Part shown: positions 1-25,526 of the stretch, piece by piece
Layout: each line of letters begins with the position of its first letter
Position numbering within the stretch: position 1 is the first letter of the stretch
Source of the DNA: a virus
Reading direction: 5' to 3' (one strand)
Virus genome (UHGV): UHGV-1455077
DNA length: 64,000 bases
Notes under the pieces: model-generated
What the model was told of the DNA's origin: nothing
What the model saw: the letters and a program-made list of their open reading frames with translations, nothing else
The model's database searches: none
Position numbers and translations under genes: made by a program

Positions 1-450
1 ACTTTTTTTCTCTTGATATGCTCGTTCATATATATCAGCTAAAAATTTTGTTAATTCAATTAATTCTTGTTTAGTCATTTCTCTAGCATTTTCTGGTTTA
101 CCACTTACGTCCCAAATAGTTAATGTCATATTATCATCTAAATATTTCTGTAATAAAGTATAATATTGTTGAGAATATTCTGGCTCATACCATAAACCAT
201 TAGTATATTGAACAGGAGTAGTAACAACAAAATCAAACCAATCTTTAACTTTTTGAATTTCTTGTTCTTGAATACTTTTTAAATCAAAAGTAGTGTAAGG
301 ATAACCATTTTCATCAGTTGCTAATGCGTAGCCATTACTCATATCTTCATATAATTTTTTATGTAGTTCTTCTGTAATTTCGACTGCATTTTCTGGAATA
401 TTTGTATTAATTCCTTCAAAATAAAAACCATCTTTATAAAAAATTTTCAT
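1..450 (-). CDS. hypothetical protein, partial (start at 450, runs off the window edge); downstream of the tail-fibre gene, possibly a fibre assembly/accessory protein
   Basis: Open reading frame on the - strand from ATG (448-450) to the window start, MKIFYKDGFYFEGINTN...; no motif recognised. Confidence 0.4.
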   Translation of the reverse strand, partial: MKIFYKDGFYFEGINTNIPENAVEITEELHKKLYEDMSNGYALATDENGYPYTTFDLKSIQEQEIQKVKDWFDFVVTTPVQYTNGLWYEPEYSQQYYTLLQKYLDDNMTLTIWDVSGKPENAREMTKQELIELTKFLADIYERAYQEKKS

Positions 451-451
451 A

Positions 452-3208
452 TTAATATCCTTTTGCTACCCAATTAATTTCTTCAGATATACTTGTATCA
501 ACTGTAAATCCATCATTATCATAAGATAAAATTTTAATACCATTTGCCATTACATACAATAATTTATTTTTATAAGATTCTGGGAATGAAACTTTACCAT
601 TAACAGGTGTTGAAACACCCCATTGTTCTATAATTTTTGTAGCAAATTTATTTTCATCTTGAATCCAGCTTTCAATTTTATTCTCAAATAATGTTCCTGT
701 AAAGCCGCCACTTTGTGCAATAGTATTTAAATCTTGTGTTGGATAATTATTATATAAATGACAAGTATTATTACTTGTGAATGAACCTATTTTAGCATAT
801 CTTGTATAACCATCAGGCAATGTTGGAATTTCACCAGATTCTGTACCAATATCAACAATATCTCCTGTATCATTAGAAATAACAAATACATTAAACTTTG
901 TATTTTTTTTCATAGTTGTTGAAAATATTGCCATAATATCAATTTCATTTGCACCAACAGCATTTCCATATGAATTTTTAATTGTTAAACCAATAGTTTT
1001 GTCTATTTGTGGAGTTGGAATTTCAATGTGTGAGTGACCATAATCTTCATTTAATGCTGTAAATGAAGCAACCACATTTGATGGTTCAGCTACCCAAATA
1101 TCAATATCTTTAGAACGGTTTTCTAATCCAGAACCTTGATTGTAAAAATCAATAGCTGTTACACGTAAAGGATAAATTGCTGTATAATACCAAGTTGCAG
1201 AAGTAACATCTGTTAACCAACCATTACCTGTTTGTTTTAATCCATCCATTGCTCTATAACCTTCACGGTCAATCTGTGCAGATGAAGTTATAACTTTACC
1301 TAATGGTTGTGTATTACTTGTCATTACTGGTTGAATCCAAGTTTCTTGTTCATCTTTTAATGAACTACCATTATTATTTCCATCTTTAAATTTTTTATTT
1401 GGATTTTTAATAATAATTGAATTAATTTTTAATAAAACTGTTCCTGTTGAATCCATAATTGAACCTGGTTGAATAACAAGAGTATCATCAGCTTCATATG
1501 GATGTTCAGGGTATGTATCAGGAATTGTTCCATATATAATTTCTGATGTAAAACCATTTTGTGTATTTCTTAATTTAATATCACCTGCTAAAGTTTTTGT
1601 ATCAACTAAATTAAAATCTGATGCATCTTCATTAACTTGTGGAATTTTACCAGCATTATTAGTAAATGTTGTTAAAGATTTAATATTTAAATCTTCTTTT
1701 AAAGTATCTTTAGTAATTAACTCATAACCACTTTCATCTTGTTTTACTCTTAAATATTCTAATGAATGTGATGTTGGTCTTGGTAATTCTGTATTTATTA
1801 AAGTCATATTACCAAAAATTGTTACTTCAACTCGTGCTCCGCTTTCAATATTATCAGTAAATGTAATAATTGTTCCTGTTGTATCAATATTATAATTATC
1901 AGATTGAATTAAAGTATTACCAATATTAATCATTAATGAATTTTTATCATTAACTGAAACTGGTAATGTAATAGTATTTGTTTCATTAACTATATCAAAG
2001 AAATAATTTAATTTATTATAACCTGCTAAGAGTTGCCATTTTGAATTATCAAAAGGTTCGGAAGCAATATTATCTTCAAGACAAATATACATTGCATTAT
2101 CATAAATACAAACATTTCCTTTTGCAAATGATAATCCGACTTGCCATTGTATAATATTAGCTCTTTCATCATATGTATGCAATACCATATTTCCCATAGA
2201 TAAAACTTCAATTATTACACCAGCTGGAATTGGTTTAATAAAAGTAATTGTTTTATGGTCAGGTTCTAATGTATAATTTTGAGATTGTTGTAAAATGCCC
2301 CCAGCATTAATAATTACAACTTCTTTATTAGGAATTTCATCGGTTAAAGTAATTGAAGTTGTTTCTTCAGTTGCATTATAAAAAAATTCTCTTGCTGCTG
2401 AAAAACCTGCTAAAATTTTCCATTTACTTTCATCAAATCCAACATCAGATGTATGGTCTTCAATACATTCAAATAATGCATTTTCATAAATAACAACCGT
2501 TCCTTGTGAATATTCAGTATTTGGTGTCCAATCAACTAATGTTGCATCATTTGTACCAATAATTGTAAAATTAGGATAATCACCAGTAATAGCAATATTT
2601 TTACCAGGATTTAATGAAATAATTTGGTCAGGTTTAGTATTTGTAACAATATTATCACGAGAAATTGCAATACCATCACCAGCTGTATAACTATTATTAC
2701 TTGCTGAAATTAACACATTGTTTGAATCAGGAGAATATTCAACAGTAATATTTTGATTTCCTGGTTTAATATTTTGTTGAACTAAATATTTAGAACTATC
2801 AGGAAAATTAACTTTAAGTGAAACAGTATTGTCAGTTTCACTTGGAATAACTGATATTGATGAATCTTCAGCTTTAATATCTTCTTTAGTTAAAAAATCT
2901 TCAACAGGATGGTCAGTTGTTGAAATTGTAACTTTATTAGTATCTGGGTCAGTAGTTACAGTAATATTTGCACCTGCAACAATATCTTCAGATTTTAAAT
3001 TATCTTTTGTTAAATCTTCAACATCTTCAGCTGTTAAGTGAATTGATTTATTATCAATGTGTTCTTGAACTGTTTTTTCTGTTTCAGTTGTTGTTCCAGT
3101 AACATCTTCAACAATAGTTGCTAAAGTTTCTGGATTAATTTTTTGATAATCATCACCATTTTTAACAACTAATTCAGCAATTGTTTTATTATCTAAAATA
3201 CTAACCAT
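452..3208 (-). CDS. tail fibre / receptor-binding protein with two CBM5/12-like (chitin-binding type) repeats
   Basis: 918-aa ORF. Repeated motif W..(N/Q)..Y..G..V.Y....(F/Y).C..(D/H)..S......(S/N)KW..LAG occurs twice. Long Thr/Asn/Ser-rich beta-rich N-terminal region typical of fibres. AATAAATA late-promoter-like box upstream at 3240-3247. Confidence 0.6.
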   Translation of the reverse strand: MVSILDNKTIAELVVKNGDDYQKINPETLATIVEDVTGTTTETEKTVQEHIDNKSIHLTAEDVEDLTKDNLKSEDIVAGANITVTTDPDTNKVTISTTDHPVEDFLTKEDIKAEDSSISVIPSETDNTVSLKVNFPDSSKYLVQQNIKPGNQNITVEYSPDSNNVLISASNNSYTAGDGIAISRDNIVTNTKPDQIISLNPGKNIAITGDYPNFTIIGTNDATLVDWTPNTEYSQGTVVIYENALFECIEDHTSDVGFDESKWKILAGFSAAREFFYNATEETTSITLTDEIPNKEVVIINAGGILQQSQNYTLEPDHKTITFIKPIPAGVIIEVLSMGNMVLHTYDERANIIQWQVGLSFAKGNVCIYDNAMYICLEDNIASEPFDNSKWQLLAGYNKLNYFFDIVNETNTITLPVSVNDKNSLMINIGNTLIQSDNYNIDTTGTIITFTDNIESGARVEVTIFGNMTLINTELPRPTSHSLEYLRVKQDESGYELITKDTLKEDLNIKSLTTFTNNAGKIPQVNEDASDFNLVDTKTLAGDIKLRNTQNGFTSEIIYGTIPDTYPEHPYEADDTLVIQPGSIMDSTGTVLLKINSIIIKNPNKKFKDGNNNGSSLKDEQETWIQPVMTSNTQPLGKVITSSAQIDREGYRAMDGLKQTGNGWLTDVTSATWYYTAIYPLRVTAIDFYNQGSGLENRSKDIDIWVAEPSNVVASFTALNEDYGHSHIEIPTPQIDKTIGLTIKNSYGNAVGANEIDIMAIFSTTMKKNTKFNVFVISNDTGDIVDIGTESGEIPTLPDGYTRYAKIGSFTSNNTCHLYNNYPTQDLNTIAQSGGFTGTLFENKIESWIQDENKFATKIIEQWGVSTPVNGKVSFPESYKNKLLYVMANGIKILSYDNDGFTVDTSISEEINWVAKGY

Positions 3209-3239
3209 TTAATAATTCCTCTTGTAAATCTATAAAAGT

Positions 3240-3247
3240 ATTTATTC
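3240..3247 (-). promoter_or_regulatory. T4-type late-promoter-like box AATAAATA upstream of the 918-aa fibre gene
   Basis: - strand reads AATAAATA about 35 nt upstream of the ATG at 3208. Same 8-mer recurs upstream of other structural genes. Confidence 0.4.
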
Positions 3248-3306
3248 ACAGTTTGAAGTATTAAAAAGGTTTGTTCTTATTTATTAAATAAGAACAAAGG
3301 GAATAA

Positions 3307-3714
3307 ATGATGACAGATACAAGTAAATTACCTATTTCACGTGTTGGTGAATTAAATGATAAATTAAGTGAAATTAATAATCATCTTAATTTATTATCTA
3401 ATAAAATAACTGCATTAGAAAATAATTTATCTAATAAAAATTATGTAATGCAATATCCAACTATTACCGAAACAGGAAGAATAACAATTCCTGTCAATAC
3501 TGATTATACATTAACAGAAAATTGCTGGGTATGGTGGGGAAATACTGTTTATGTAGGAGATAGAATTTTTTATATCAATGGTATTATAATAGGAAGGTCA
3601 TATGGTCGTTCTGGAAGCTGGGAAGAATTTAATTCAATGTTTATCCCATTAAAAGCAGGAAATGTTATTAGACATACAGGAGATAATTCTATATGTTACA
3701 TTTATCCTAATTAA
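3307..3714 (+). CDS. hypothetical protein (MMTD-family small protein; paralog of 42669..43058)
   Basis: 135-aa ORF with N-terminal MMTDxSK and a coiled-coil-like segment followed by a Trp/Gly-rich C-terminus. Shares N-terminal signature with 42669..43058. Confidence 0.5.
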   Translation: MMTDTSKLPISRVGELNDKLSEINNHLNLLSNKITALENNLSNKNYVMQYPTITETGRITIPVNTDYTLTENCWVWWGNTVYVGDRIFYINGIIIGRSYGRSGSWEEFNSMFIPLKAGNVIRHTGDNSICYIYPN

Positions 3715-3720
3715 TAACAA

Positions 3721-3742
3721 AGCTCCCAAATGGGAGCTTAAC
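3721..3742 (+). terminator. hairpin aagctccca-aat-tgggagctt followed by T-rich tract
   Basis: Perfect 9-bp inverted repeat immediately after the stop codon of 3307..3714. Confidence 0.5.
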
Positions 3743-3744
3743 TT

Positions 3745-4055
3745 ATTTATGTATTATTTCAGTCGCAGTCATTTCTGTTGCAAGGATAACTGTTTCCCCA
3801 CTAAACATAAAAGCCTTCATCCGTTAGGATTAAGCAGCAATTACATTATAGTTATAGTTAACGTTTTCGTTAGCATTCATTTTATTTTGAACCGATATTG
3901 GTGGTATCTCGCCAGGTACATTATAGCCATTTTCAATAATGTTCAAAATTCCGTCCGCCCCTAATACATTGATTTTTCATAATATTTTCCTGGTGGAGCG
4001 GCTGGGAGTTAAACCCAGGTCACTATCATTTACTTTGGGATAATTTATCAGCACC
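3745..4055 (-). ncRNA. ssrA: tmRNA (ssrA-like), apparently circularly permuted (two-piece). Acceptor piece ends with CCA at 3981; coding piece starts GGGGCGG at 3951; tag ORF at 3874..3829.
   Basis: - strand reads ...CCTGGGTTTAACTCCCAGCCGCTCCACCA (T-arm, 3' acceptor strand, CCA), almost identical to the E. coli ssrA 3' end CGGGTTCAACTCCCGCCAGCTCCACCA. After 30 nt it reads GGGGCGG (complementary to CCGCTCC with one G-U). Then GCT AAC GAA AAC GTT AAC TAT AAC TAT AAT GTA ATT GCT GCT TAA = ANENVNYNYNVIAA*, and GCTGCTTAATCCTAAC resembles E. coli GCAGCTTAATAACC. Exact 5' and 3' boundaries not determined. Confidence 0.6.
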
Positions 4056-4064
4056 ATTCAAAAT

Positions 4065-4095
4065 TATTTATAAATTATTTTATTTTAATTGTCAA
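4065..4095 (-). promoter_or_regulatory. sigma70-like promoter (TTGACA-N16/17-TATAAA) oriented into the tmRNA gene
   Basis: - strand TTGACAattaaaataaaataattTATAAA. Member of a recurring intergenic TTGACA...TATAtt motif family. Confidence 0.4.
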
Positions 4096-4156
4096 TAAAA
4101 TAATTTAGGACATAAATACAGTTATAAGCAATTCACAAATTTAATAAAGGATTATA

Positions 4157-4960
4157 ATGATATATTATGTTTATCAAATAACAAATAAAATTAATAATAA
4201 AATTTACATTGGAAAAAGAAAATATAAAGGAGAAAATCCTTTATTAGATTCATATATGGGGTCAGGAAAATTAATTAAAGAAGCAATTAAAAAATATGGA
4301 AAAAATAATTTTCAAAAAAATATTATTCAAAGTTTTGATAATGAAAATGATGCTTTTAAATTAGAAAAAGAACTTGTAACAAAAGAATTCTGTAACAGAA
4401 AAGATACTTATAATATTCACGAAGGTGGTACAGGAAGTTTTTCTCACATTAATAATAAACCAATTGAAAAAAGAGAAAATATTATAGCTGTTAGAAAATT
4501 ATTAAATTCAGGAGTAAAATTTGGTGGAAAAAAATATTTTACAGAAGAAACTTATCAAAAAATTAGTAATTTTAATAAAGAACGATGGAAAACTTGGAAA
4601 GAAAAACCAGAATTAATGCCAGATTTTTATATAAAACCTCGTACAGAAAAATTTAAACAACATTTATCAGAAATTTTTAAAGGTCAAAATAATCCTAATT
4701 TTGGTAAACATTGGTATATTCATAAAAAAGCTATTAATATTAATGAAAAGAAAATGTTTTTTGATAATGAAATACCACAAGGTTTTATTACAGTAAAAGA
4801 ATGGAAAGATTTACATAAAAATAAGAAAAATAAAGCATATGGAAAACATTGGTATAATGATGGTAAACAAAATTATTTTTTATCCCCAGATGATGAAAAA
4901 ATTAAAATATTAAGTAAAGGGCGTATTGGTACTCTTTTTAAAAAAATTGAAAGTAATTAG
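4157..4960 (+). CDS. GIY-YIG family homing endonuclease (freestanding)
   Basis: N-terminus IYYVYQITNKINNKIYIGK...KYG matches the GIY-YIG module (compare I-TevI GIYQIKN..KVYVGS). 267 aa, Lys-rich C-terminal DNA-binding-like region. Confidence 0.7.
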   Translation: MIYYVYQITNKINNKIYIGKRKYKGENPLLDSYMGSGKLIKEAIKKYGKNNFQKNIIQSFDNENDAFKLEKELVTKEFCNRKDTYNIHEGGTGSFSHINNKPIEKRENIIAVRKLLNSGVKFGGKKYFTEETYQKISNFNKERWKTWKEKPELMPDFYIKPRTEKFKQHLSEIFKGQNNPNFGKHWYIHKKAININEKKMFFDNEIPQGFITVKEWKDLHKNKKNKAYGKHWYNDGKQNYFLSPDDEKIKILSKGRIGTLFKKIESN

Positions 4961-4997
4961 AAAAAGATTTATATTAAATTTTAATGGTTCAAAGTTT

Positions 4998-5113
4998 ATT
5001 CGTTTTGCAAGCTGGTGGTAATTGGAATGATTCATCTAACTACGGAGTTGGTTCACGTAATAGTAACAATTCCCGTGCTAATTTGAATGACAATAACTCG
5101 GTGCGGGGCTTGA
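4998..5113 (+). repeat. DGR template repeat (TR)
   Basis: attcgttttgcaagctggtggtaattggaatgattcatctaactacggagttggttcacgtaatagtaacaattcccgtgctaatttgaatgacaataactcggtgcggggcttga. Matches the reverse complement of 6675-6790 except at 18 TR-adenine positions and one T. In the target frame TR encodes QAGGNWNDSSNYGVGSRNSNNSRANLNDNNSVRGL (Asn AAY-rich). Confidence 0.85.
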
Positions 5114-5119
5114 TATAAT
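5111..5119 (+). promoter_or_regulatory. extended -10-like element TGATATAAT at the TR 3' boundary (possible RT promoter)
   Basis: cttgaTATAATc immediately after the TR/VR homology ends; about 120 nt upstream of the RT start. Confidence 0.25.
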
Positions 5120-5238
5120 CTCTTTTTTGAGCATTAGCTGAATTTTGAACCTTGTCTTAACAGGCTAAACATCAAAAACCAAAAAATAATATTAGTAAAA
5201 GAATTTGAACATATTATTTTTTATTAAGAGTAAAATAA

Positions 5239-6570
5239 ATGAAAAGAATTAATAATTTATGGCACGAATTTACTTCTCAAGAAAATTGGTTTATTGCTCG
5301 TAAAAGAGCTTTACAAGGCAAAGTTAAAAAGTTTTGTGTAAAAGCTATTATGAGAAAAGGTGATGAGTATTTAGAAAAAATTCGCCAAGAAGTAATTAAT
5401 GGAACTTTTGAATTTAAAGGTTATAAAGAACATACAATTTATGAACCTAAAGAAAGAAAAATATATGTTGCTCGGATTGAAGAAAGAATTTATCATTGGG
5501 CATCAATGATGATTGCTGAACGAATTTTTGAGCCAACATTTATTTATGATAGTTATTGTTGTCGTAAAAATAAAGGTCAACATAAATGTTCTGCCAGATG
5601 TAAAGAAATTGTTAAACATAATGATTATTGTTTAAAATTAGATATTTCAAAATTTTATCCAAATATTAATCATAACATATTAAAAGATTGTTTAGCAAGA
5701 AAAATTAAAGATGTAAAATTTTTAAATGCTTTATATGCTATTATTGATAGCCATAATAAAGATACTGGTAAAGGAATACCTATTGGAAATTATTCCTCGC
5801 AATTTTTTGGCAATATTTATATGACTAAATTGGATATGTTTGTTAAACATACTCTAAAATGTAAAAATTATTTAAGATATTGTGATGATTTTTGTCTATT
5901 TTCTAATGATAAAAAATACTTAAATTGGTGCAAAGAAAAAATAATTGAATTTGTTACTAATGAACTTGATATGAAATTAAGTAAATGTGATTTATTTAAA
6001 ACAAAGCAAGGTGTAGATTTTGTTGGATATAGGCATTTTCCACAATATACTTTAGTTAGAAAAAGAACTGCTAAAAAAGTTAAGAAAAGATTATTAAAAA
6101 TTCAATATAAATTGAATAATTGTAATCTTACACAAAAAGAACTTTTTAGAATGAATGGACAAGTTGCCAGCTCTTATGGTTGGTGTAAACACGCTGATTC
6201 ATATAGATTTATGAAAAAATATAAAATAGAAGAAAGCTTAAGGGAGATAATTATGAGATATTCAGAATTTAAAAATAAATTACATACAAATAAAATGTTA
6301 TCAATGAAAATAAACGATTTTATTAATAAAGAAATTACAATAACTGGTTGGGAATATTGTAAAAAGAAAGATGATGATGAAAAAGTTAAAACTGTTAAAA
6401 TCTTTTTACGTTATGATAATGAAGAAAAAATCATTATTACAAAAGCATCAGTTATTATTCGTGATTTAGAAGAAATTTCTCAATTAGAAAAAGAAGAAAA
6501 TACAAAAATATTTCCTTTTGAAACTGTATTGAAAAAAGATACAAAACGGAATTATTTTTATTTTGAATAG
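5239..6570 (+). CDS. DGR reverse transcriptase (Brt-like) with ~110-aa C-terminal extension
   Basis: Collinear with Bordetella phage BPP-1 Brt. N-terminus MKRINNLWHEFTSQENW vs MGKRHRNLIDQITTWENL. IYEPKERKIY vs VYEPKPRLIS. YDSYCCRKNKGQHK vs YTYACRPDKGTH. LKLDISKFYPNI vs LKSDFSKFFPSI. DGR-specific GIPIGNYSSQFFGNIY (IGxxxSQ replaces QGxxSP). Catalytic RYCDDFCLF (YxDD). GVDFVGYRHFP thumb motif. Confidence 0.85.
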   Translation: MKRINNLWHEFTSQENWFIARKRALQGKVKKFCVKAIMRKGDEYLEKIRQEVINGTFEFKGYKEHTIYEPKERKIYVARIEERIYHWASMMIAERIFEPTFIYDSYCCRKNKGQHKCSARCKEIVKHNDYCLKLDISKFYPNINHNILKDCLARKIKDVKFLNALYAIIDSHNKDTGKGIPIGNYSSQFFGNIYMTKLDMFVKHTLKCKNYLRYCDDFCLFSNDKKYLNWCKEKIIEFVTNELDMKLSKCDLFKTKQGVDFVGYRHFPQYTLVRKRTAKKVKKRLLKIQYKLNNCNLTQKELFRMNGQVASSYGWCKHADSYRFMKKYKIEESLREIIMRYSEFKNKLHTNKMLSMKINDFINKEITITGWEYCKKKDDDEKVKTVKIFLRYDNEEKIIITKASVIIRDLEEISQLEKEENTKIFPFETVLKKDTKRNYFYFE

Positions 6571-6660
6571 AGTTGGGCATCACAAGGATGCCCTGCTTAT
6601 AGTATTAAGACCGCACAAGGCGGTCTAAAAAAGAAGGATTTGAGTTTATCACTCAAATCC
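6571..6660. promoter_or_regulatory. three consecutive hairpins between the convergent RT and target genes, immediately 3' of VR
   Basis: gggcatcacaaggatgccc (7-bp stem), agaccgcacaaggcggtct (7-bp stem), ggatttgagtttatcactcaaatcc (10-bp stem overlapping the target stop codon). Confidence 0.5.
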
Positions 6661-7728
6661 TTTAGCATTAGCTGTCAAGCCCCGCACCGAGCTACCGTCA
6701 AGCAAACTAGCACGGGAATAGTCACTCACACGCGAACCAACCCCGCAGTTAGATGAATCACCCCAATAACCACCAGCCCGCAAAACGAATCCTTCACCGT
6801 AAAAAGAACCTTTACCCATATCAGTATTAATTACTGTCCAACCACTTCCACCAGATGCACCAGTTGAATTTAAATATTGCCATAAAGCACCACAACAATC
6901 TTCAATACCATAAACAGAAATCATTCTTCTGCCAGCAGTATCTACGTGTCCACCAGTTGTTACAGGGTCAGCCGCACCTGAAATTGCAGTTCCTTGATTT
7001 GAACCAAATGCATAAACAGTAAATTCATTATCATTTGCTAAATGTTTTCCAACTGAAAATAAATCTTCAACGTGATTTTGATAATAACGTGTATCTGTAA
7101 TTGTACCACCAAATACTGATTTTGTATTTAAACCAGTTCCTGATTGTAAATAAATATCACACCATTTATCAATGGCATCAATATATGCCATACCATCAAC
7201 ATCAGCAAATCTCGGACGGAATGAAATACAAGATACTGAATTTGGTAAAATATCACCTGCATTATATCCTGATAATAAATGACCAGAAATAGTTCCAACA
7301 TTTGCACAAACAGTATGGAATGAAGATAGCCATTGAGTATTTGCTGTGGTATAACCAGTTGGAGCATCCGCATTTAATGAACAAATTAATTCTTTATCAG
7401 AAGTAATATAAATGTAATAAGTTTTTCCTGCCTGTAATGATGAACCAGTATCTAATATTGAAACAGGATTAATTTCTTTTGCTTCATAATTTTCATAATT
7501 AACCAATTCATTATTAAATACTAATGGAATATTACAAGGTTCAATAACAATTGTAGATTTATCAAAACAATTAGTTTTTCCTAATCTAAATAATTGTGCG
7601 TATGATTTACCTTTAATTGTAGTATCTAATTCTTTAATATGAACAAATCTAAAAGTTGGAGCAAATCCGCCTAATAAAGTTTGTAATCCATATATACGAT
7701 TTAATTGTACTTTTGAAATATCTATCAT
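6649..7728 (-). CDS. DGR target (variable) protein; C-terminal C-type-lectin/FGE-like fold carrying the VR; probable receptor-binding (tail fibre tip) protein
   Basis: 359-aa ORF whose last ~40 codons (FVLRAGGYWGDSSNCGVGSRVSDYSRASLLDGSSVRGL) are the VR. C-terminal GG.W...G pattern typical of CLec-fold DGR targets. AATAAATA late box upstream (7754-7761). Gene has noticeably higher GC than its neighbours. Confidence 0.8.
   Translation of the reverse strand: MIDISKVQLNRIYGLQTLLGGFAPTFRFVHIKELDTTIKGKSYAQLFRLGKTNCFDKSTIVIEPCNIPLVFNNELVNYENYEAKEINPVSILDTGSSLQAGKTYYIYITSDKELICSLNADAPTGYTTANTQWLSSFHTVCANVGTISGHLLSGYNAGDILPNSVSCISFRPRFADVDGMAYIDAIDKWCDIYLQSGTGLNTKSVFGGTITDTRYYQNHVEDLFSVGKHLANDNEFTVYAFGSNQGTAISGAADPVTTGGHVDTAGRRMISVYGIEDCCGALWQYLNSTGASGGSGWTVINTDMGKGSFYGEGFVLRAGGYWGDSSNCGVGSRVSDYSRASLLDGSSVRGLTANAKGFE
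6675..6790 (-). repeat. DGR variable repeat (VR) at the 3' end of the target gene
   Basis: Sense strand attcgttttgcgggctggtggttattggggtgattcatctaactgcggggttggttcgcgtgtgagtgactattcccgtgctagtttgcttgacggtagctcggtgcggggcttga. Identical to TR except where TR has A (18 sites) plus one T-to-G. GC-rich 3' end ctcggtgcggggcttga shared with TR, then the sequences diverge. Confidence 0.85.
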
Positions 7729-7753
7729 TCTAATACCTTTTGCTTATATCAAA

Positions 7754-7761
7754 TATTTATT
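7754..7761 (-). promoter_or_regulatory. late-promoter-like AATAAATA box upstream of the DGR target gene
   Basis: - strand ...tttcAATAAATAtttgatataagcaaaaggtattagaATG. Confidence 0.4.
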
Positions 7762-7766
7762 GAAAT

Positions 7767-7800
7767 AAAAATCCACCAGCAATATTGCTGGTGGATTTTT
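7767..7800 (-). terminator. hairpin aaaaatccaccagcaatattgctggtggattttt with flanking A/T runs (bidirectional)
   Basis: 12-bp perfect inverted repeat between 7827..8228 and the DGR target gene. Confidence 0.55.
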
Positions 7801-7826
7801 TAGTATAACAACAATGAAAAATTTTA

Positions 7827-8228
7827 TTACTTTTCTTTTTTAATCAATTCAATCGTCTGTTTACCAAGTTCAGTAATCATTGATTTAACAATATCTTCTT
7901 CGGTTTCACAACGATATTCATTATAAGAACCTTCAGCATTGTGATATTTTAAATTACAAACTATTTCTTCTAAATCTTCAGATGGCAATGTACTTTCATA
8001 AACTTCATCTGTATGTTTATCTTTAATAAAAATTGTAAGTTCATATTCATCTAAATGAGCTTCAATGATTTCAAAATCATTTGACAATTTCATAGGAAAT
8101 GTCTGCTCTACCCCATTAACTGTTTTAACTTCGGTTGAATTGCTAAAAGCAAACCAACTGACACAGCCAACCAAAAATGCAACTAAAATTGTTAAACCTA
8201 AAACCTGAATTTTTTTAATCATCTTCAT
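7827..8228 (-). CDS. putative lipoprotein
   Basis: N-terminal signal peptide with lipobox LVGC (MKMIKKIQVLGLTILVAFLVGC). Confidence 0.5.
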   Translation of the reverse strand: MKMIKKIQVLGLTILVAFLVGCVSWFAFSNSTEVKTVNGVEQTFPMKLSNDFEIIEAHLDEYELTIFIKDKHTDEVYESTLPSEDLEEIVCNLKYHNAEGSYNEYRCETEEDIVKSMITELGKQTIELIKKEK

Positions 8229-8410
8229 TTTTTTTATTCCTTTTCAAAAATACCTTTATAATTACGATATGAATATTTGTCGTTTGGATTAAATTTACAA
8301 CGATAAAATCCATTAAGTTTCTTTAGCCATTTAGCATAATCACGTTTTTCTTTTTCTTTCTGTTTTTTCAATTTTTCTTCTAATGTTTTTTCTTCCATAG
8401 CATACTCCTA

Positions 8411-8692
8411 TTATTTTTTAATAATTTTTCCAATTGAGCGAATACCATAATCCAACTCAAAAGGTATATTTTCGACTGAATTATACTGATATTCAACAAC
8501 ATAATTATTAGTATTGTATTTTTGATACAATCCTCTAATTTTAAAAGATGCATTAACCATTTTCCGACTTCCAACAACCATATTATATGGAATCGTTTCA
8601 ACAATCTGTCTGGTTTTAATATCTTTTATGATAACATTACCAATGATTCTTTGAAGTTTCATCATTATTCCCCTTTCTTTAACAATTACCAT
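8411..8692 (-). CDS. hypothetical protein
   Basis: 93-aa ORF; the overlapping 8380..8604 alternative is less protein-like. Confidence 0.35.
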   Translation of the reverse strand: MVIVKERGIMMKLQRIIGNVIIKDIKTRQIVETIPYNMVVGSRKMVNASFKIRGLYQKYNTNNYVVEYQYNSVENIPFELDYGIRSIGKIIKK

Positions 8693-9168
8693 TCACAATC
8701 ATCATCGTCAGACCAATAATCTGACTCGTCATCATCTTCTCCCCACATCTCATCAGCTTTTTCGGCAAATACCAAACGAGAATCATCGGTATTTTTTTCT
8801 TCAAAAATAGAAGGATTTTCTTTTACATAATTTAAAACATCTTTCGTCAACTGATTTAAAGAATTTTCATAATCATCATCATTACTATTAAAATAATATG
8901 AAGTCATTTTACTAATTTGATTTTTAAATCCTTTATCTGCCAAATAAAGAGCATCACTACCACAAGTTTCTACTCCATAACCAACAAAAAATTTATCTCC
9001 ATCGTTCCACCAACGATACCCAAGACGATTAATTGCACGAATAATCTCACCACCAACTGTTTCACACATCCCAACTTCTGGAACATATTTTTTAAACAAT
9101 TCAACAATTTCATCATCAATTGCTTGTATTTCTTTTTTTGATAGTTTTTCCATTATTTTTCCTTTCAT
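8686..9168 (-). CDS. hypothetical protein, acidic C-terminus
   Basis: 160-aa ORF with RBS-like aaaggaaaa upstream. Confidence 0.45.
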   Translation of the reverse strand: MKGKIMEKLSKKEIQAIDDEIVELFKKYVPEVGMCETVGGEIIRAINRLGYRWWNDGDKFFVGYGVETCGSDALYLADKGFKNQISKMTSYYFNSNDDDYENSLNQLTKDVLNYVKENPSIFEEKNTDDSRLVFAEKADEMWGEDDDESDYWSDDDDCEW

Positions 9169-9204
9169 ATTATAAAAAAGCTCATCATTTGTTGTTTGAT
9201 GAGC

Positions 9205-9235
9205 TTAATATAACAGCTAAAAAATAGTTGTCAAT
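9205..9235 (-). promoter_or_regulatory. sigma70-like early promoter (TTGACA-N17-TATATT)
   Basis: - strand TTGACAactattttttagctgtTATATT. Followed by a hairpin gctcatcaaacaacaaatgatgagc plus a T-run (9175-9204) before the start at 9168. Confidence 0.35.
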
Positions 9236-9243
9236 AGGAAAAT

Positions 9244-9900
9244 TTAAATTTTTTCAAGTTTTTTCATTTTTCGTTCAAATTTATTTAATTTTTCAATAAA
9301 ATAATTACAAGAATAATTACCCCATTCAAAAATAATTTGAGCTTTTTCTTCAATATAATTCTTTTTAATTTTTTGAAACATTTCTTTTGTTCCATCTTCC
9401 CATATAATTATCATATCTTTTTCTTTTATACTTAGAAAATTAAAATTTTCTTCTAAAAAGTTTATAGTAAATACTTCCCCATTAATTTTTGTTAAGTCAA
9501 TACTGGCAAGAACTGATTTACTAAATGTATAATTTAAATTTTCAAATTCTCTTAAATGATAATATAATGATTTAAAATTCCAATAATCACTTTTCTTTAT
9601 GAAATTATATGAACTACAAAACGGATGTTTTTTAAAATAATTTATAAATGTCCAACTATCTGAAAAGCGTAAAATATGAGCTACACAATAAGAATCATTT
9701 AAATAACACTTATATCTATTTAAATTCTGTATATAAACACTTACAATTTCTTCTTGTATAAAATTTTCTATTTCTTTATTTAATTTAATAATGAAATTAT
9801 TTTTATTTGCTTTTAATTTTTTATGATAATTAAAAGCTCTTAATTTATTACTTATTTTATTTTCACTAAAGTAAAATTTTTTAAATAAATTTTTAATCAT
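9244..9900 (-). CDS. hypothetical protein
   Basis: 218-aa ORF. Confidence 0.4.
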   Translation of the reverse strand: MIKNLFKKFYFSENKISNKLRAFNYHKKLKANKNNFIIKLNKEIENFIQEEIVSVYIQNLNRYKCYLNDSYCVAHILRFSDSWTFINYFKKHPFCSSYNFIKKSDYWNFKSLYYHLREFENLNYTFSKSVLASIDLTKINGEVFTINFLEENFNFLSIKEKDMIIIWEDGTKEMFQKIKKNYIEEKAQIIFEWGNYSCNYFIEKLNKFERKMKKLEKI

Positions 9901-10052
9901 TATCTTTGCTCCATTGATGTTTCATCAATCTTTTCATTTTATTTCTATTATATTTCTTTTTAGAAGGAATAACTTTTTGCTTATATAAAGGATTTGACCA
10001 TAATTCAAGTGCCGTTAAATCACGGCGTTTAATTTCTGGTTTTATAACTAAT

Positions 10053-10670
10053 TTAATTATCTTCATTTTTTATTATTCTTTCAACTTCAATCTCAAATTC
10101 ATTATTGATAGAAATAAAGAAAATTACATCACAATCTTTACTCTGTAATATTAAATAATCATCAACCCCGTTATGTTCTATATACACATCAGTTATTTTT
10201 CTACCTAAAATCTCGGCAATATCACTACAATGTTTATTAATTGTATACTTTGATTTAATTCTAAGAACAGTATTTTCTTTTAAAAATACAAAATCAATAC
10301 AATGCTGGTCATAAACAACATAGTTAAGTTCATATTCAGTAAGCATTTTAAGACTATCTTCATTAGCAACTTCAATAACTTTAAGACTTCTATCTAAAAA
10401 ATTTGAAGATTGAATAGCAGATTTCCAACTATCATATTCTTCAATAAAGTTTTCTTCTGAAATATATGAATAATTATCGCCAGTCAATGGATATGATTCA
10501 AATTCAACTTTACCATTATTATAAAATTTATGGATTCCTAAAGTATTATAACCAACTTGATTTGAATTATATGTATCAATATGCGTAATGACAAATTTAT
10601 CATTTAATTCTTGATACACTTGTCCAACTTTAATTTCAAATTTTTTCATCAATTTTCTCCTCACAATCAT
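10053..10670 (-). CDS. hypothetical protein
   Basis: 205-aa ORF. Confidence 0.4.
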   Translation of the reverse strand: MIVRRKLMKKFEIKVGQVYQELNDKFVITHIDTYNSNQVGYNTLGIHKFYNNGKVEFESYPLTGDNYSYISEENFIEEYDSWKSAIQSSNFLDRSLKVIEVANEDSLKMLTEYELNYVVYDQHCIDFVFLKENTVLRIKSKYTINKHCSDIAEILGRKITDVYIEHNGVDDYLILQSKDCDVIFFISINNEFEIEVERIIKNEDN

Positions 10671-10956
10671 AGTTTTTTATTATATATGAAATAATTTTTT
10701 CAAATTTTCGTACATCTTTGTTAAATTCTATATCAAAATTTTCCAATGACATTTTAGAATCATAACGTTTCTTAAAAACATAATGAAAATCATTTACTGA
10801 ATATTCAGCATCTACTGATGTTGACATTTCTTTAAAATATTCACTAAAAAAATGATAACATCTAAAATTAACAGTTATATTATCAATTTTAGTTTTATAA
10901 GAATATTTGTCCAATAAAGTTGATTTTTCAGGAATATCGTTTAATGTTAAACTCAT
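10636..10956 (-). CDS. hypothetical protein
   Basis: 106-aa ORF downstream of promoter 10984-11016. Confidence 0.4.
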   Translation of the reverse strand: MSLTLNDIPEKSTLLDKYSYKTKIDNITVNFRCYHFFSEYFKEMSTSVDAEYSVNDFHYVFKKRYDSKMSLENFDIEFNKDVRKFEKIISYIIKNYDCEEKIDEKI

Positions 10957-10983
10957 ATAAAAATACCTTTAATAAATTTATTA

Positions 10984-11016
10984 AAGGTATTATAGAAACT
11001 TATTTTTTAATTGTCA
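10984..11016 (-). promoter_or_regulatory. sigma70-like early promoter (TTGACA-N17-TATAAT)
   Basis: - strand cTTGACAattaaaaaataagtttcTATAATacc; consensus -35 and -10. Confidence 0.5.
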
Positions 11017-11026
11017 AGAATTTTTT

Positions 11027-11102
11027 TGGCACTCCCAGAGGGATTCTAACCCCCAATTTAACGTCCGTAGCGTTATGGTTTATACAATTAGCCTATGGGA
11101 GC
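11027..11102 (-). tRNA. tRNA-Arg (anticodon ACG), CCA encoded
   Basis: GCTCCCA acceptor paired with TGGGAGT. Anticodon stem TAACG/CGTTA, loop CTACGGA. T-arm GGGGG-TTAGAAT-CCCTC (non-canonical T-loop). 3' GCCA. Confidence 0.5.
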
Positions 11103-11107
11103 GTTTT

Positions 11108-11569
11108 TTATTTACCCCAAAGTTTATTTTGAGCCAACATAACAACATTACCTAATCTTTGTTTAGCAGTTTCTTCATCAATTTTTCCATCTTCCATTGC
11201 ACGATAAATTTCTTCTGCTTTAATTGTTAACTCATCATTTTCTGGTAAATTAGCATTAATAAATTGTAATTGCATCCAAGGATTAACATCAGAATCAAAA
11301 GGTTTTCCTTCTAACAATTTTTTAATAACTGGGTCAGAAATTTCATTTAATTTTGTTTCCATTTCAAAACTTTCTGTTAATTTAGAATATACGCCATCAG
11401 CTAAACCTTCTGCCATTTCAGCATTTTTTAATTTAGCATCTTCAATAACTTTTTCTATTTGGTCAACTGATTTATTTTCAACAATAAATTTACGACCATA
11501 AATATATCCAAATGAGTAATCTCTTGATTTGTCTTTAATTTGTGAAACATCCATAATATTATTCTCCAT
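11108..11569 (-). CDS. hypothetical protein
   Basis: 153-aa ORF. Confidence 0.4.
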   Translation of the reverse strand: MENNIMDVSQIKDKSRDYSFGYIYGRKFIVENKSVDQIEKVIEDAKLKNAEMAEGLADGVYSKLTESFEMETKLNEISDPVIKKLLEGKPFDSDVNPWMQLQFINANLPENDELTIKAEEIYRAMEDGKIDEETAKQRLGNVVMLAQNKLWGK

Positions 11570-11594
11570 TATATATAGTAATATTTATGAAATA

Positions 11595-11954
11595 TTAACA
11601 CGAACGATTTTTTATATGATTAATTAATTTATCAAATGTATCAAAATTCCAATAATCATATCCATAAGATAAAATAAAATCTTTATGAAAATATCCATCA
11701 GATTCTAATTGATTATTAATTTCTTTTAATAATCTTAATTGTTCTCTTGTTTGAATATATCGGTAATCAACCATTAATGTTTGATTGCCATTAACAATTC
11801 TAATCCAGCCTAACTCTAAAGTTTTTGTAGTGGCATCTTCATCACTATCATATGTTTCTCCTAATAAATTTTCAATAAATTTTTTATGACCAAAATCATT
11901 CATTATTGTATAAATTTTGTTATCAGGAGAAATCCAAAATCCATAAGGTTTCAT
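11595..11954 (-). CDS. hypothetical protein (position matches the clamp-loader small subunit of T4-like phages; no sequence support)
   Basis: 119-aa ORF immediately downstream of the gp44-like gene; sigma70-like promoter at 11988-12016. Confidence 0.35.
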   Translation of the reverse strand: MKPYGFWISPDNKIYTIMNDFGHKKFIENLLGETYDSDEDATTKTLELGWIRIVNGNQTLMVDYRYIQTREQLRLLKEINNQLESDGYFHKDFILSYGYDYWNFDTFDKLINHIKNRSC

Positions 11955-11987
11955 TTATATCCTTTAAAAAATAAGGTTATCTAAAAT

Positions 11988-12016
11988 ATGATAACCTTAA
12001 TATAACATATAAATTT
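11988..12016 (-). promoter_or_regulatory. sigma70-like early promoter
   Basis: - strand TTGACAaaagaaatttatatgTTATATTaagg. Confidence 0.35.
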
Positions 12017-12032
12017 CTTTTGTCAATAGAAA

Positions 12033-12986
12033 TTAGCTTTCTAATATAAATTTAATTTCAATTAAGCAAGAAATAAAATTAATATCAGGAAATGCAACAA
12101 AATTATGTTGATATAAATATTTTGCAATAGTTATTAAAATCTTATCATATTTTTTAACATCAGTTGATATTAATTCCAAATGATTATACATAAACTGATA
12201 TAATGGTTCATATTCTTCCATAGCAATTGTTTGTGCTAATTTTTGTTTCATTGATAAGCAAGACATTGTAGATATATTTGTTACAATATCACTAAATTTA
12301 TCAAATGAATATGCGGCATCATTATTTAATGGTTGAAGAACATTATTAATTGTATTTTGGTCAATTGCATTAATGCAAGCTCTTAAATCTGGCTGATAAA
12401 CTTCAACATATTTAACAACATCATTCATATTTTGAACTGTAATTTTTTCATCTTGTAAAATTGTTGCAATTCTTCCAACAAATTCTTCAAATTTTAAAGT
12501 ATTAAAATGATAACGTTGACAACGAGAAGTTATTGCTTCATCAATATGTGAAATATTGTTAGTTGTTAAAATAAATCTACACCAATTTGAATATTCTTCC
12601 AAAACAAATTTTAGCGAACTTTGAGCTTGCTTTGAAGCTCTTTCAAATTCTTCTAAAATAACATATTTAATAACTCCTTCTTGAAATGGTGGTACAGAAG
12701 CATAATCAATTACTTTACGCATATCATCAATAGAAGTTTTATCTGACATATTAAAACGAACATAATCAACAAGTTTTAATTCATTTATTAAAACATTAAT
12801 TGATGAAGATTTTCCTGTTCCAGGAGGCCCAAAGAAAATTAAATGTGTATCAATTTGCCCATTAGCAACCCAACTCTTAAATTTATTCTCATATTCATCA
12901 TTAATAAATACCAAATCATTTACAGTTTTTGGTCTATATTTTTCAGTTAATATCTGATTCATTTTTCCCCTCATTAAGATGTTCAT
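12033..12986 (-). CDS. clamp loader large subunit (RFC-like AAA+ ATPase, T4 gp44-like)
   Basis: LTEKYRPKTVNDL (RFC box II), Walker A FFGPPGTGKSS, DEAD-like ILEEFE, SRC-like TSRCQ. Confidence 0.8.
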   Translation of the reverse strand: MNILMRGKMNQILTEKYRPKTVNDLVFINDEYENKFKSWVANGQIDTHLIFFGPPGTGKSSSINVLINELKLVDYVRFNMSDKTSIDDMRKVIDYASVPPFQEGVIKYVILEEFERASKQAQSSLKFVLEEYSNWCRFILTTNNISHIDEAITSRCQRYHFNTLKFEEFVGRIATILQDEKITVQNMNDVVKYVEVYQPDLRACINAIDQNTINNVLQPLNNDAAYSFDKFSDIVTNISTMSCLSMKQKLAQTIAMEEYEPLYQFMYNHLELISTDVKKYDKILITIAKYLYQHNFVAFPDINFISCLIEIKFILES

Positions 12987-13215
12987 TTAATTTATCCATA
13001 AAATTATACCATACATTTGCATCGGTTAAATCACCAATTCGTTGCATTTCAGACGCTTCAACAATTTCTTTAATCATTGATTTTAAGCAAAATTCAGACA
13101 AATTAGTTAAACCAATTTCATTAATAACATAATCACAAAATGTTTTAGGAGCATATGTACTTCTTCCTAAACAATATCTAAATGCAAACGTTACCATTAA
13201 TTCTTTATCATTCAT
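12943..13215 (-). CDS. hypothetical protein
   Basis: 90-aa ORF overlapping the start of the clamp-loader gene. Confidence 0.35.
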   Translation of the reverse strand: MNDKELMVTFAFRYCLGRSTYAPKTFCDYVINEIGLTNLSEFCLKSMIKEIVEASEMQRIGDLTDANVWYNFMDKLNEHLNEGKNESDIN

Positions 13216-13227
13216 TATCTTAATTCC

Positions 13228-13662
13228 TTAAGAATTTTTATCATTTTCTTCAATAACTTCTAAAGGTTTTGTATCAAAAGAACAACTAACACATAAAGCA
13301 ACTGCCGTCAAATTATAATTAGATATTTTGCCTTCATTGTCAACTTCTCCTATACCAGTTGCACAACAATATACAGGCATTTTTTTATTAGAAATGACAT
13401 CATTAATAGATGCAACTATAATATCATTTTGACTATCAAATGTTGACCCTTCAATCCATAATTCATTGTTTTCAATATATGCTTTTTCAATTTTTCCACA
13501 AATATTATCAAAATCATAAGGGTCATCTGGTAATTCATACAATAGAGGAATATCATTTTCTTGAATATCTTGGTATACTTTTTCAATAATTTCTTGTGAA
13601 TAAATTCTACCATTAGCATTTATTTTGTCTGCTTGAAAACAGCAACTCTTAAATTTTACCAT
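13228..13662 (-). CDS. hypothetical protein
   Basis: 144-aa ORF. Confidence 0.4.
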   Translation of the reverse strand: MVKFKSCCFQADKINANGRIYSQEIIEKVYQDIQENDIPLLYELPDDPYDFDNICGKIEKAYIENNELWIEGSTFDSQNDIIVASINDVISNKKMPVYCCATGIGEVDNEGKISNYNLTAVALCVSCSFDTKPLEVIEENDKNS

Positions 13663-13664
13663 TA

Positions 13665-13946
13665 TTATACCTCACAAATTTGTTGAATATCAATTACATC
13701 TATAACAATAGATGCATCACCTTTAATATAGTTTTCTGAATAATCAATATCAAAACCTTCATCTTTCATTGCTTGTAAAAATCTACGTTCATTAACATCC
13801 TCAACTTCACAAACTTCTTCTACCATTTTCTTTGTAATTAAAATAGTATTTAATCTTCCAGACCCTCTACAATCCATCTGTTGTATTGGAACATAGATTA
13901 TATTTCCACGATAAGGAATTTTACAACGTATTAAATAATTTTCCAT
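13665..13946 (-). CDS. hypothetical protein
   Basis: 93-aa ORF. Confidence 0.4.
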   Translation of the reverse strand: MENYLIRCKIPYRGNIIYVPIQQMDCRGSGRLNTILITKKMVEEVCEVEDVNERRFLQAMKDEGFDIDYSENYIKGDASIVIDVIDIQQICEV

Positions 13947-13952
13947 ATATTT

Positions 13953-14315
13953 TTACCCTATAAAAAATAGTGTTGCTAAACTTATACCTATAATTGATAA
14001 AATTGTCAATATAATTGTTAAAAATGGATGAGATTTCTTCTTTCTTTGACCATACCAGTTTTCCCAATTTTTTTGAACAAAACATTTTAATTCAGTATCA
14101 TTTGGTAAATGGTCTTTTCCAAATAAAGCATATAATTCTGGATATTTTCGTTTATCAAAAATTTTATTTGGTGTCCATTTAATAAAACTTTCAGGAACTG
14201 CTCCATCAACATCCATTGTAAAACCAATAGGTGTGGTATCTTCAATAGGTTTATTTTTATTAAAATCCCACAAATCTTTTCTTTTAGTGGCTTTAATAAC
14301 AGTAATTCTTTCCAT
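13953..14315 (-). CDS. hypothetical membrane-anchored protein
   Basis: C-terminal hydrophobic helix FLTIILTILSIIGISLATLFFIG. Confidence 0.4.
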   Translation of the reverse strand: MERITVIKATKRKDLWDFNKNKPIEDTTPIGFTMDVDGAVPESFIKWTPNKIFDKRKYPELYALFGKDHLPNDTELKCFVQKNWENWYGQRKKKSHPFLTIILTILSIIGISLATLFFIG

Positions 14316-14329
14316 TGATTTAATCCTTG

Positions 14330-15544: not shown

Positions 15545-15546
15545 TA

Positions 15547-15906: not shown

Positions 15907-15915
15907 TTTTTCTCC

Positions 15916-24945: not shown

Positions 24946-24957
24946 AATGTTTATTAT

Positions 24958-25519: not shown

Positions 25520-25526
25520 TATAAAA

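Follow-up and report, generated by a model that had tools for sequence, protein, structure and literature searches.

The DNA analyzed here, referred to as the window, is a stretch of 64,000 nucleotides of the virus genome UHGV-1455077, and the element under study is a transfer-messenger RNA (tmRNA, ssrA) locus on its minus strand. The sequence comparisons indicate that this locus is very likely an intact, probably functional, phage-encoded two-piece tmRNA gene, which occupies approximately 3712-4095 (-) when its promoter and terminator are included (Table 1). The preliminary description of the window, made from the letters alone, had placed a circularly permuted tmRNA at 3745-4055; the place is right, the span slightly short, and all of the tmRNA sequence features that it listed are found on the minus strand where it put them. 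The same arrangement recurs in more than 10 independent assemblies of 200-289 kb, and no protein gene is called over the tmRNA locus.

Identification of the permuted gene

The proposed two-piece order is borne out by the Rfam scans of the window, in which both covariance models of permuted tmRNAs score above their curated cut-offs. RF04321 (tmRNA_permuted) matches 3830-4055 (-) over the full model (positions 1-213) with 87.5 bits against a gathering threshold of 47 (E = 2e-15). RF01849 (alpha_tmRNA) matches 3761-4099 (-), also at full length (model positions 1-355, ending at 3761), with 77.9 bits against a threshold of 50 (E = 1.9e-19). Matches of this strength lie far outside what chance would give. 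In this output one lower-scoring overlapping match of the same clan was suppressed in favor of RF01849, and no score of RF00023 is displayed. The T arm, the 3' acceptor strand and the CCA precede the 5' acceptor strand, from which an intervening sequence separates them, and the sole CCA-ended acceptor strand complementary to GGGGCGG lies upstream of it. The complementarity noticed beforehand, with one G-U pair and about 30 nt between the strands, proves exact: seven of seven pairs form, the G-U is the third pair, and the spacer measures 29 nt.

According to the preliminary description, a canonical 3' tRNA-like end downstream of the tag, or silence of every tmRNA model, would speak against a permuted gene; neither was found. 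ARAGORN reports no tRNA-like 3' end downstream of the tag, and the Rfam scans showed permuted-type models only, the same-clan match being hidden. The standard one-piece layout of the RF00023 type is absent, the tag being followed by a second pseudoknot (PK2) and by the terminator at 3739-3712. An ordinary one-piece tmRNA whose 3' tRNA-like end was overlooked beyond the tag is therefore hardly credible, and no observation speaks for it.

The suggested check with ARAGORN gave a divided result. At default settings the program reports 8 tRNAs and no tmRNA in the 64-kb window, and at a lowered threshold (-ps) it returns a tmRNA labelled 'Permuted', in which both halves of the tRNA domain agree with those given here and the tag is wrong. 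The default run also misses two diverged homologues (L165 and L197, described below) and the 187-bit bacterial-type alpha tmRNA of MT836065; since three clear relatives escape it as well, its silence is no evidence against the gene.

Table 1. Coordinates and supporting evidence of the tmRNA locus and the adjoining endonuclease gene in the window
Feature	Position	Strand	Evidence or details
Sigma-70-like promoter	4067-4095	-	TTGACA 4095-4090, 17-nt spacer, TATAAA 4072-4067
Acceptor piece (3' half of the tRNA-like domain)	3991-4055	-	Rfam alignment; pairs; ARAGORN -ps '3' tRNA domain'
T arm CUGGG/UUUAACU/CCCAG	4018-4002	-	5-bp stem and 7-nt loop; pairs checked
3' acceptor strand CCGCUCC	4001-3995	-	Sequence
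Discriminator A and encoded CCA	3994 (A); 3993-3991 (CCA)	-	Sequence
Intervening sequence	3962-3990	-	29 nt from CCA to coding piece; presumed removed in processing
Coding piece	3761-3961	-	Rfam alpha_tmRNA alignment; may extend 3' to the terminator
5' acceptor strand GGGGCGG	3961-3955	-	Pairs 7/7 with CCGCUCC
D-loop analogue	3954-3943	-	In the coding piece
3' strands of P2a/b/c	3942-3915	-	P2a 7 bp with one bulge, P2b 5+2 bp, P2c 5 bp
Pseudoknot PK1	3894-3914	-	Pair check; three-sequence alignment
Tag frame, 14 codons	3830-3874	-	ANENVNYNYNVIAA and stop; resume GCU 3874-3872, stop UAA 3832-3830
Helix 5-like hairpin, including the stop codon	3815-3834	-	7 pairs in the window; weakest model element
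Second pseudoknot (PK2-like)	3766-3799	-	11/11 pairs
Intrinsic terminator	3712-3739	-	8-bp stem with 5 G-C pairs, 4-nt loop, T-rich tail
GIY-YIG/NUMOD3 homing endonuclease	4157-4960	+	Pfam and PHROG matches; divergent from the tmRNA promoter

Anatomy of the RNA

The structure was drawn by hand under the guidance of homology, and every helix pair was checked. In total 50 of the 51 pairs form (acceptor stem 7, T arm 5, P2a/b/c 7/7/5, PK1 4/5 and 4, PK2 5 and 6). The acceptor piece contains the 5' strands of P2c, P2b and P2a, followed by the T arm, the 3' acceptor strand, the discriminator and the CCA. Its T loop, UUUAACU, carries U at the third position, where C is usual. The third acceptor pair, G3959-U3997, is the G3:U70 wobble that serves as an alanine identity element. 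A search of the window for a second copy of the T arm, as would be expected had it been copied from a phage tRNA, gave none at up to 3 mismatches. The spacer between CCA and coding piece is 29 nt long here, 5 nt in L165 and L197 and 10-21 nt in most bacterial relatives; because it varies from 5 to 29 nt across relatives, its sequence and length appear unconstrained, which fits a removed segment.

Within the coding piece, stem 1 of PK1 joins 3914-3910 with 3903-3899 (4/5 pairs) and stem 2 joins 3908-3905 with 3897-3894 (4/4 pairs). An A-rich single strand separates PK1 from the resume codon. The tag frame with a GCT resume codon and a TAA stop, as initially read, is confirmed at 3874-3830, and its peptide ends with a hydrophobic residue and two alanines before the stop. 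Downstream of the tag, PK2 is formed by stem 1 (3799-3795 with 3786-3782) and stem 2 (3792-3787 with 3771-3766), and its connecting loop, GCAACAGAA, is invariant, also across the 14 bacterial relatives aligned. The only strain polymorphisms within the mature RNA, at 3815 and 3813, fall at or just past the 3' end of helix 5. When the two pieces are folded by minimum free energy, the acceptor stem and the T arm are obtained again, but the fold departs from the homology-guided P2, PK1 and PK2, for which it was not used.

Diverged homologues and signs of selection

A metagenome scan for the T arm retrieved two diverged homologues. L165 is a 36-kb contig that encodes a dUTPase, UvsY-like and UvsX-like proteins and a gp32-like single-stranded DNA-binding protein, with a gene neighborhood unlike that of the window; it is another phage. 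L197 is a contig of 1.3 kb. Their divergence from the window amounts to ~16% (mean column identity over the aligned locus), and they reach 101-104 bits under RF04321 and 88-90 bits under RF01849. Both keep the layout, the 5' start, the promoter and a terminator.

In the three-sequence alignment, 95.3% of the cells of the structure pair, compared with 37-47% when the partners are slid by 1-3 columns, and 8 pairs are altered on both sides, compared with 0-1 when slid. These 8 compensatory pairs sit in the acceptor stem, P2b, PK1, helix 5 and both PK2 stems. Two of them belong to the acceptor stem, in which the G-U is retained, and three to PK2. The first pair of PK1 stem 1 is U:A in the window and C:G in L165, L197 and the bacterial relatives.

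The tag frame behaves similarly. The homologue tag, ANDNLAYNYNVMAA and stop, has the same length, with no indels. The differences comprise 5 silent substitutions (one stop-to-stop change counted) and 4 amino-acid changes, a pattern that appears typical of a translated frame. The tag ends, AN(D/E)N...AA, are conserved in the homologues, and the YNYNV motif is kept in the phage lineage. The evidence of selection on the RNA comes from L165 and L197, and not on the identity between strains.

Promoter and terminator

The sigma70-like promoter initially proposed at 4065-4095 is upheld, with TTGACA and TATAAA between 4095 and 4067. Transcription is predicted to start a few nucleotides upstream of G4055. 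The motif TTGACA-N16-18-TATAA is enriched: it occurs 5 times in the window, compared with 0.82 expected, and none of 100 shuffles reaches 5. All five copies lie on the minus strand (4068-4095, 10990-11017, 13982-14009, 25067-25094 and 45189-45217); besides that of the tmRNA, one stands ahead of the tRNA-Leu pair and another ~400 nt upstream of GroEL. L165 and L197 retain the two hexamers at the same distance of 17 nt (TTGACA-17-TATAAATA), although the sequence in between differs. A generic promoter scanner did not list the site, because its second hexamer ends in A and not in T. A T4-type late promoter, with TATAAATA at -10, was considered and rejected, since this octamer shows no enrichment, 16 copies occurring in the window where 28 are expected.

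Terminator-like sites number 3, compared with 0.4 expected. L165 carries a terminator-like hairpin with a T run at the equivalent place, different in sequence.

Bacterial relatives and mosaic make-up

The phage 33-nt block spanning PK1 and the resume codon was scanned, with three positions left free, against one genome per species for 185,579 species. It matches only 19 species, all of them uncultured gut, rumen or mouse-gut metagenome-assembled genomes (MAGs), such as 'Azospirillum sp. 51_20', UMGS149 and the RUG and MGBC bins. The record titles of 18 of the 19 read Alphaproteobacteria, 'proteobacterium' or 'Azospirillum sp.', and that of the remaining one reads 'Clostridium sp.'; we take these MAGs to belong to the GTDB order RF32. 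Every one of them carries a classic alpha tmRNA (189-221 bits). The segment 3908-3866, which runs from PK1 into the beginning of the tag, is close to identical with its counterpart in these gut alphaproteobacterial tmRNAs (GAGATACCACC..TATCGGTTCAAAA.AAAATGAATGCTAACGA).

The likeness extends to the permuted order, to the helix plan (P2c, bulge, P2b, internal loop, P2a, tRNA-like domain), to the tag ends ANDN...AA, to a PK2-like pseudoknot and to the GCAACAGAA loop. Tags of the bacterial relatives read ANDNELAPVALAA or ANDNNVAPVAIAA, some of them with a C-terminal IAA, as VAIAA. In contrast, the middle of the phage tag is the Asn/Tyr-rich VNYNYNV, where the nearest bacterial relatives have ELAPVAL. 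AU-rich helices and a longer spacer (29 vs 10-21 nt) further set the phage RNA apart, as does the sequence of its acceptor stem, and the GC content of the phage genome is 25%, whereas that of the bacterial loci is 35-51%. A rough alignment with the bacterial relatives already reveals 10 pairs that persist although both partners have changed. Counts of 'broken' pairs against the bacterial tmRNAs were discarded as artefacts of a MAFFT alignment that is off by one base in the acceptor stem.

The most marked difference concerns the T loop, which is UUUAACU in the phage RNA and GGCRGUA in the RF01849 consensus and in 21 of 21 bacterial-type relatives (the 19 MAGs together with MT836065 and L032). 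Of the traits of the RF01849 subtype, the alpha PK1/resume region and the GCAACAGAA element are present and the alpha-type tRNA-like domain is not. The RNA is accordingly filed not as a typical RF01849 member but as an RNA with an mRNA-like domain of alpha type and a T loop of standard type, because UUUAACU replaces GGCRGUA. The UUUAACU loop is natural in standard tmRNAs, 16 of the 20 metagenome loci tested matching RF00023. The acceptor piece is weakly closest to permuted tmRNAs with standard-type T loops. Judged by these comparisons, the RNA appears to be a mosaic, with an mRNA-like domain nearest to that of gut Alphaproteobacteria and a T loop of the standard type, and it appears to belong to a phage-borne lineage that combines the two.

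Several further loci were encountered in these searches. A set of 91 loci (L159-L249) shares a UUUAACU T loop and an acceptor strand ending in CTCCACCA, a combination widespread in environmental one-piece tmRNAs. In two rumen MAGs, RUG14511 (L019, 3630-4141) and RUG10873 (L025, 831-1343), the spacer between CCA and GGGG of the alpha tmRNA measures 166 and 168 nt, respectively, and holds an insertion. Two bacterial-type alpha tmRNAs are filed as viral: MT836065.1 (L001) at 2817-3168, with 187 bits, and IMGVR_UViG_3300029245_000277 (L032) at 6198-6549, with 200 bits. In both cases the DNA is probably bacterial, or a prophage that sits at ssrA, and the tmRNA probably not phage-encoded. MT836065 is an unannotated human-faecal contig of ~50% GC, and a 50-nt block in it was the sole match in a distant search of the phage collection.

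Linkage to a homing endonuclease

The GIY-YIG/NUMOD3 homing endonuclease is tied to the tmRNA in every strain seen, and it is 100% identical in all tmRNA-bearing contigs. Between the window and strains L005, L009 and L010, the block 3761-4960 (~1.2 kb) is 99.7-100% identical. Its flanks are far less so, with ~89-90% identity for the reverse transcriptase and its target gene and ~74% for the genes further on. Strain similarity stops just past the terminator, at ~3715; beyond this point, the window and L006 carry a 135-amino-acid open reading frame (ORF) and the other strains a 171-amino-acid ORF with a Collar domain. Strains L005, L009 and L010 were fetched with the exact endonuclease protein, which implies a partial retrieval bias towards identity, and three contigs fetched by the tmRNA motif alone also carry the identical endonuclease.

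A search by reverse-transcriptase synteny for diverged phage copies yielded relatives with 56-65% identity that either end before the site (L036 and L037) or lack the tmRNA. The latter case is L038, a syntenic relative with a 56%-identical reverse transcriptase, which has neither the tmRNA nor the endonuclease at the site. Motif scans of IMG/VR for diverged copies returned near-identical strains only. Taken together, the tmRNA and the endonuclease appear to form a recently spread unit, which looks like a homing or gene-conversion tract.

Proposed mechanism

The scheme proposed for this RNA is modelled on the two-piece tmRNAs established for Caulobacter. The host RNA polymerase would produce a precursor of ~350 nt, from the TTGACA/TATAAA promoter to the terminator. 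RNase P would cleave 5' of G3961, and 3' trimming would take the 29-nt spacer back to the encoded CCA, giving an acceptor piece of ~65 nt and a coding piece of ~200-250 nt, which would stay joined through the three-part P2 and the acceptor stem of 7 bp. The G3:U70 pair would direct charging with alanine, SmpB and EF-Tu would bring the RNA into stalled ribosomes, and PK1 with the upstream A-rich stretch would set the frame at GCU. The ANENVNYNYNVIAA tag would then be added, the ribosome released and the product marked for proteolysis.

Expression, processing, charging, the use of host SmpB and a benefit to the phage are what we infer from this comparison. The most likely benefit would be extra ribosome-rescue capacity during infection, which fits the tRNAs, Thg1-like enzyme, Tpt1 and GroEL of the phage.

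Alternative explanations

A modified or antagonistic tmRNA, which competes with the host tmRNA-SmpB system or alters the fate of the tagged product through a phage-specific tag (Asn/Tyr-rich, ending in ...VIAA), is an unlikely reading. In its favor, the middle of the tag is unlike that of the nearest bacterial relatives while YNYNV is conserved in the phage lineage, the type of the tRNA-like domain differs from theirs, and the tmRNA of mycobacteriophage DS6A, which lacks a coding sequence, is reported to inhibit the endogenous E. coli tmRNA (PMC11915505). Every component required for normal tagging is nevertheless retained, and the Asn and Tyr codons may simply reflect a genome of 25% GC. Both ends of the tag are also conserved; in studied systems these ends carry the recognition determinants (ClpXP/SspB). 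We regard it as still more improbable that the gene travels as a passenger: acquired from an alphaproteobacterium and homogenized within an endonuclease co-conversion tract, it would bring little or no benefit and slowly decay. The 99.7-100% identical block with sharp edges and flanks ~10% different, the absence of both genes from the syntenic site of L038, and an Rfam score that is low beside those of bacterial tmRNAs would all suit such an origin. Decay is disfavored by homologues that, at ~16% divergence, keep the helices through compensatory changes together with the tag frame, the promoter and the terminator, because this pattern of conservation is not expected of a decaying gene.

The possibility that the locus is not a phage gene at all, being a bacterial mis-assembly or an attP-type ssrA fragment left after integration, is so slight that it can practically be dismissed. 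Such an origin would not be without parallel: tmRNA genes are common integration sites (PMC11915505), and the 'viral' IMG/VR contig L032 holds a bacterial-type tmRNA that scores like those of the MAGs. The gene described here is complete and not a 3' fragment, however, and its promoter is of a type common to other genes of the window. More than 10 long assemblies, independent of one another, have it in the same position, none of the four neighboring ORFs scanned (452-7728) matches an integrase family, and no bacterial copy of this sequence type occurs in the genome collection.

Some observations weigh against the preferred reading, an intact and probably functional two-piece tmRNA. The covariation comes from three sequences, two of them close to each other, and one of the three also served as the template for the structure. 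The near-identity between strains does not count as purifying selection, because the endonuclease is equally identical, silent sites included. The phage RNA scores less than half of the 189-221 bits of its bacterial relatives and lacks their 5' leader hairpin and one 3' hairpin. PK1 stem 1 carries a C-A mismatch, and helix 5 is poorly conserved, its outer two pairs being broken in both L165 and L197. Finally, a crude tblastn search of the 64-kb window found no SmpB gene.

A broader proposal, which we put forward as possible but doubtful, is that the window, L165 and L197 represent a phage-resident lineage of hybrid two-piece tmRNAs, with a tRNA-like domain of standard type, an mRNA-like domain of alpha type and a YNYNV(I/M)AA tag, a promoter-to-terminator cassette that moves between large phages and was spread by the GIY-YIG endonuclease among gut jumbo strains. 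Infection of a host other than an alphaproteobacterium would then introduce a two-piece form where a one-piece tmRNA is in use.

The phage genome and its host

Over 12,960 nt the window is 100% identical to the ENA contig ZEEV15-1 scaffold_5 (ERZ28663558), of 288,538 bp, and its GC content is ~25%. Near-identical contigs of 200-290 kb occur in many gut assemblies, one short contig is labelled human gut metagenome, and a neighboring protein is indexed in 696 blocks of the assembly collection. The window hence derives from a jumbo phage that is widespread in the human gut and uncultivated. A megablast search of positions 1-20000 against the phage record collection gave no match. The window encodes a clamp-loader-like ATPase, a DnaB-like helicase, a primase, GroEL, a Thg1-like enzyme, Tpt1, homing endonucleases, 8 tRNAs and a diversity-generating retroelement (DGR).

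With regard to the host, the tmRNA points weakly towards gut Alphaproteobacteria. This pointer is weakened by the GC gap, the different tRNA-like domain and the known phages whose tmRNA type is foreign to their host, and it amounts to a lead, no more, towards the host of an abundant gut phage. The statement that the permuted gene may report on the host lineage was, for this reason, too strong: permuted tmRNAs occur in phages of hosts with another tmRNA type, and the tRNA-like domain found here mismatches that of the bacterial relatives. Other candidate pointers gave no host. The closest matches of GroEL are other jumbo-phage contigs, the first named cellular match being 51% identical, and the LuxR-type response regulator retrieved only copies from this phage and unnamed relatives, one of which bears the UniRef name 'Myoviridae sp. 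ctWb16'.

Several other features of the window were recorded. An intact DGR adjoins the tmRNA, with the template repeat at 4998-5113, the reverse transcriptase at 5239-6570 (+), the target gene at 6649-7728 (-) and the variable repeat at 6675-6790. The 116-nt template repeat precedes the reverse transcriptase gene and recurs as an inverted copy at the 3' end of the gene for an Mtd-like tail protein; 18 of the 19 mismatches between the repeats fall at template adenines, the hallmark of a DGR. Between template repeat and reverse transcriptase, 5120-5223 (+) gives a sub-threshold match to the Rfam RT-14 RNA (41.1 bits against a gathering threshold of 48.1, E = 0.001) and may be a structured RNA tied to the DGR. 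A second protein with an Mtd N-terminal domain is encoded at 33949-36993 (-).

A six-tRNA cluster at 24859-26061 (-) adjoins genes for a Tpt1/KptA RNA 2'-phosphotransferase (26599-27141, -) and a Thg1-like tRNA-His guanylyltransferase or repair enzyme (30951-31760, -), which suggests a tRNA maintenance or repair module. At 25433-25519 (-) ARAGORN reports an 87-nt tRNA-Cys (GCA) with an unusually long variable arm, which could be a class II tRNA with an altered anticodon. Further genes encode a NarL/FixJ-type response regulator (37100-37708, -), a ResIII/Eco57I-type helicase-methylase of 1342 amino acids (20715-24743, -) and GroEL (43146-44780, -), the last belonging to a large family with homologues of 53-82% identity on other contigs of 200-390 kb.

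Relation to known systems

Alphaproteobacterial two-piece tmRNA was first shown in Caulobacter crescentus, by the account of Keiler et al. (2000), and two-piece forms are by now documented in phages as well. A permuted ssrA in a phage had been called rare, which overstates the case: 53 of 133 unique phage tmRNAs are two-piece (PMC9004378), and the generic permuted-tmRNA motif occurs in at least 120 contigs of IMG/VR. The tmRNA database paper counts 79 bacteriophage tmRNAs. Of the 53 two-piece phage tmRNAs, 50 come from marine or aquatic phages, and the Methylophilales phage Melnitz carries one (PMC9004378). Permuted tmRNAs in phages of hosts with a different tmRNA type include those of Melnitz on OM43, of the Streptomyces phage BRock and of the Stenotrophomonas phages Mendera and Moby; the last three are among the exceptions to the marine or aquatic origin.

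The marine myophages (Melnitz, the Pelagibacter phage Mosig, pelagimyophages and some cyanophages; PMC9004378) resemble the phage described here in having a complete permuted ssrA of alphaproteobacterial type. They are likewise large lytic-type phages with tRNA genes alongside and an early-type sigma-70 promoter, which is predicted here. In contrast, the present gene comes from the human gut, lies in a genome of ~288 kb and is linked to an endonuclease, and the Rfam scans detected no glutamine riboswitch such as that of Melnitz. Apart from the 50-nt block in MT836065, there is no DNA similarity to the phage collection.

Huge phages with tmRNA and SmpB genes have been described (Al-Shayeb et al. 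2020, PMC7162821), and the likeness consists in a jumbo phage that carries translation-support genes, including a tmRNA. That survey used ARAGORN, which at default settings misses the gene found here, and the 64-kb window, for its part, shows no SmpB. Pipelines built on default ARAGORN overlook this gene as well as its relatives; the numbers of such phage tmRNAs given in virome catalogues are therefore probably too low.

The linkage to the endonuclease has a counterpart in a different class of RNA genes. In T4-like phages, free-standing GIY-YIG endonucleases of the Seg type lie beside tRNA genes, T4 segB being an example. Common to both is a free-standing endonuclease, GIY-YIG/NUMOD3 in the present case, next to a structural-RNA gene, in a block homogenized between strains; the neighbor here is a tmRNA and not a tRNA cluster, and homing is putative.

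Our knowledge of how tmRNA works is unchanged by this finding. A human-gut jumbo phage joins the known, otherwise mostly marine, carriers of two-piece tmRNA, and the mosaic together with the endonuclease linkage offers a concrete case for the movement of structured-RNA genes between bacteria and phages. Two-piece tmRNAs of phages being already documented, what is unusual here is the human-gut, jumbo-phage setting, and what is new is a mosaic RNA that is conserved in a small phage lineage, linked to an endonuclease and missed by ARAGORN at its default settings.

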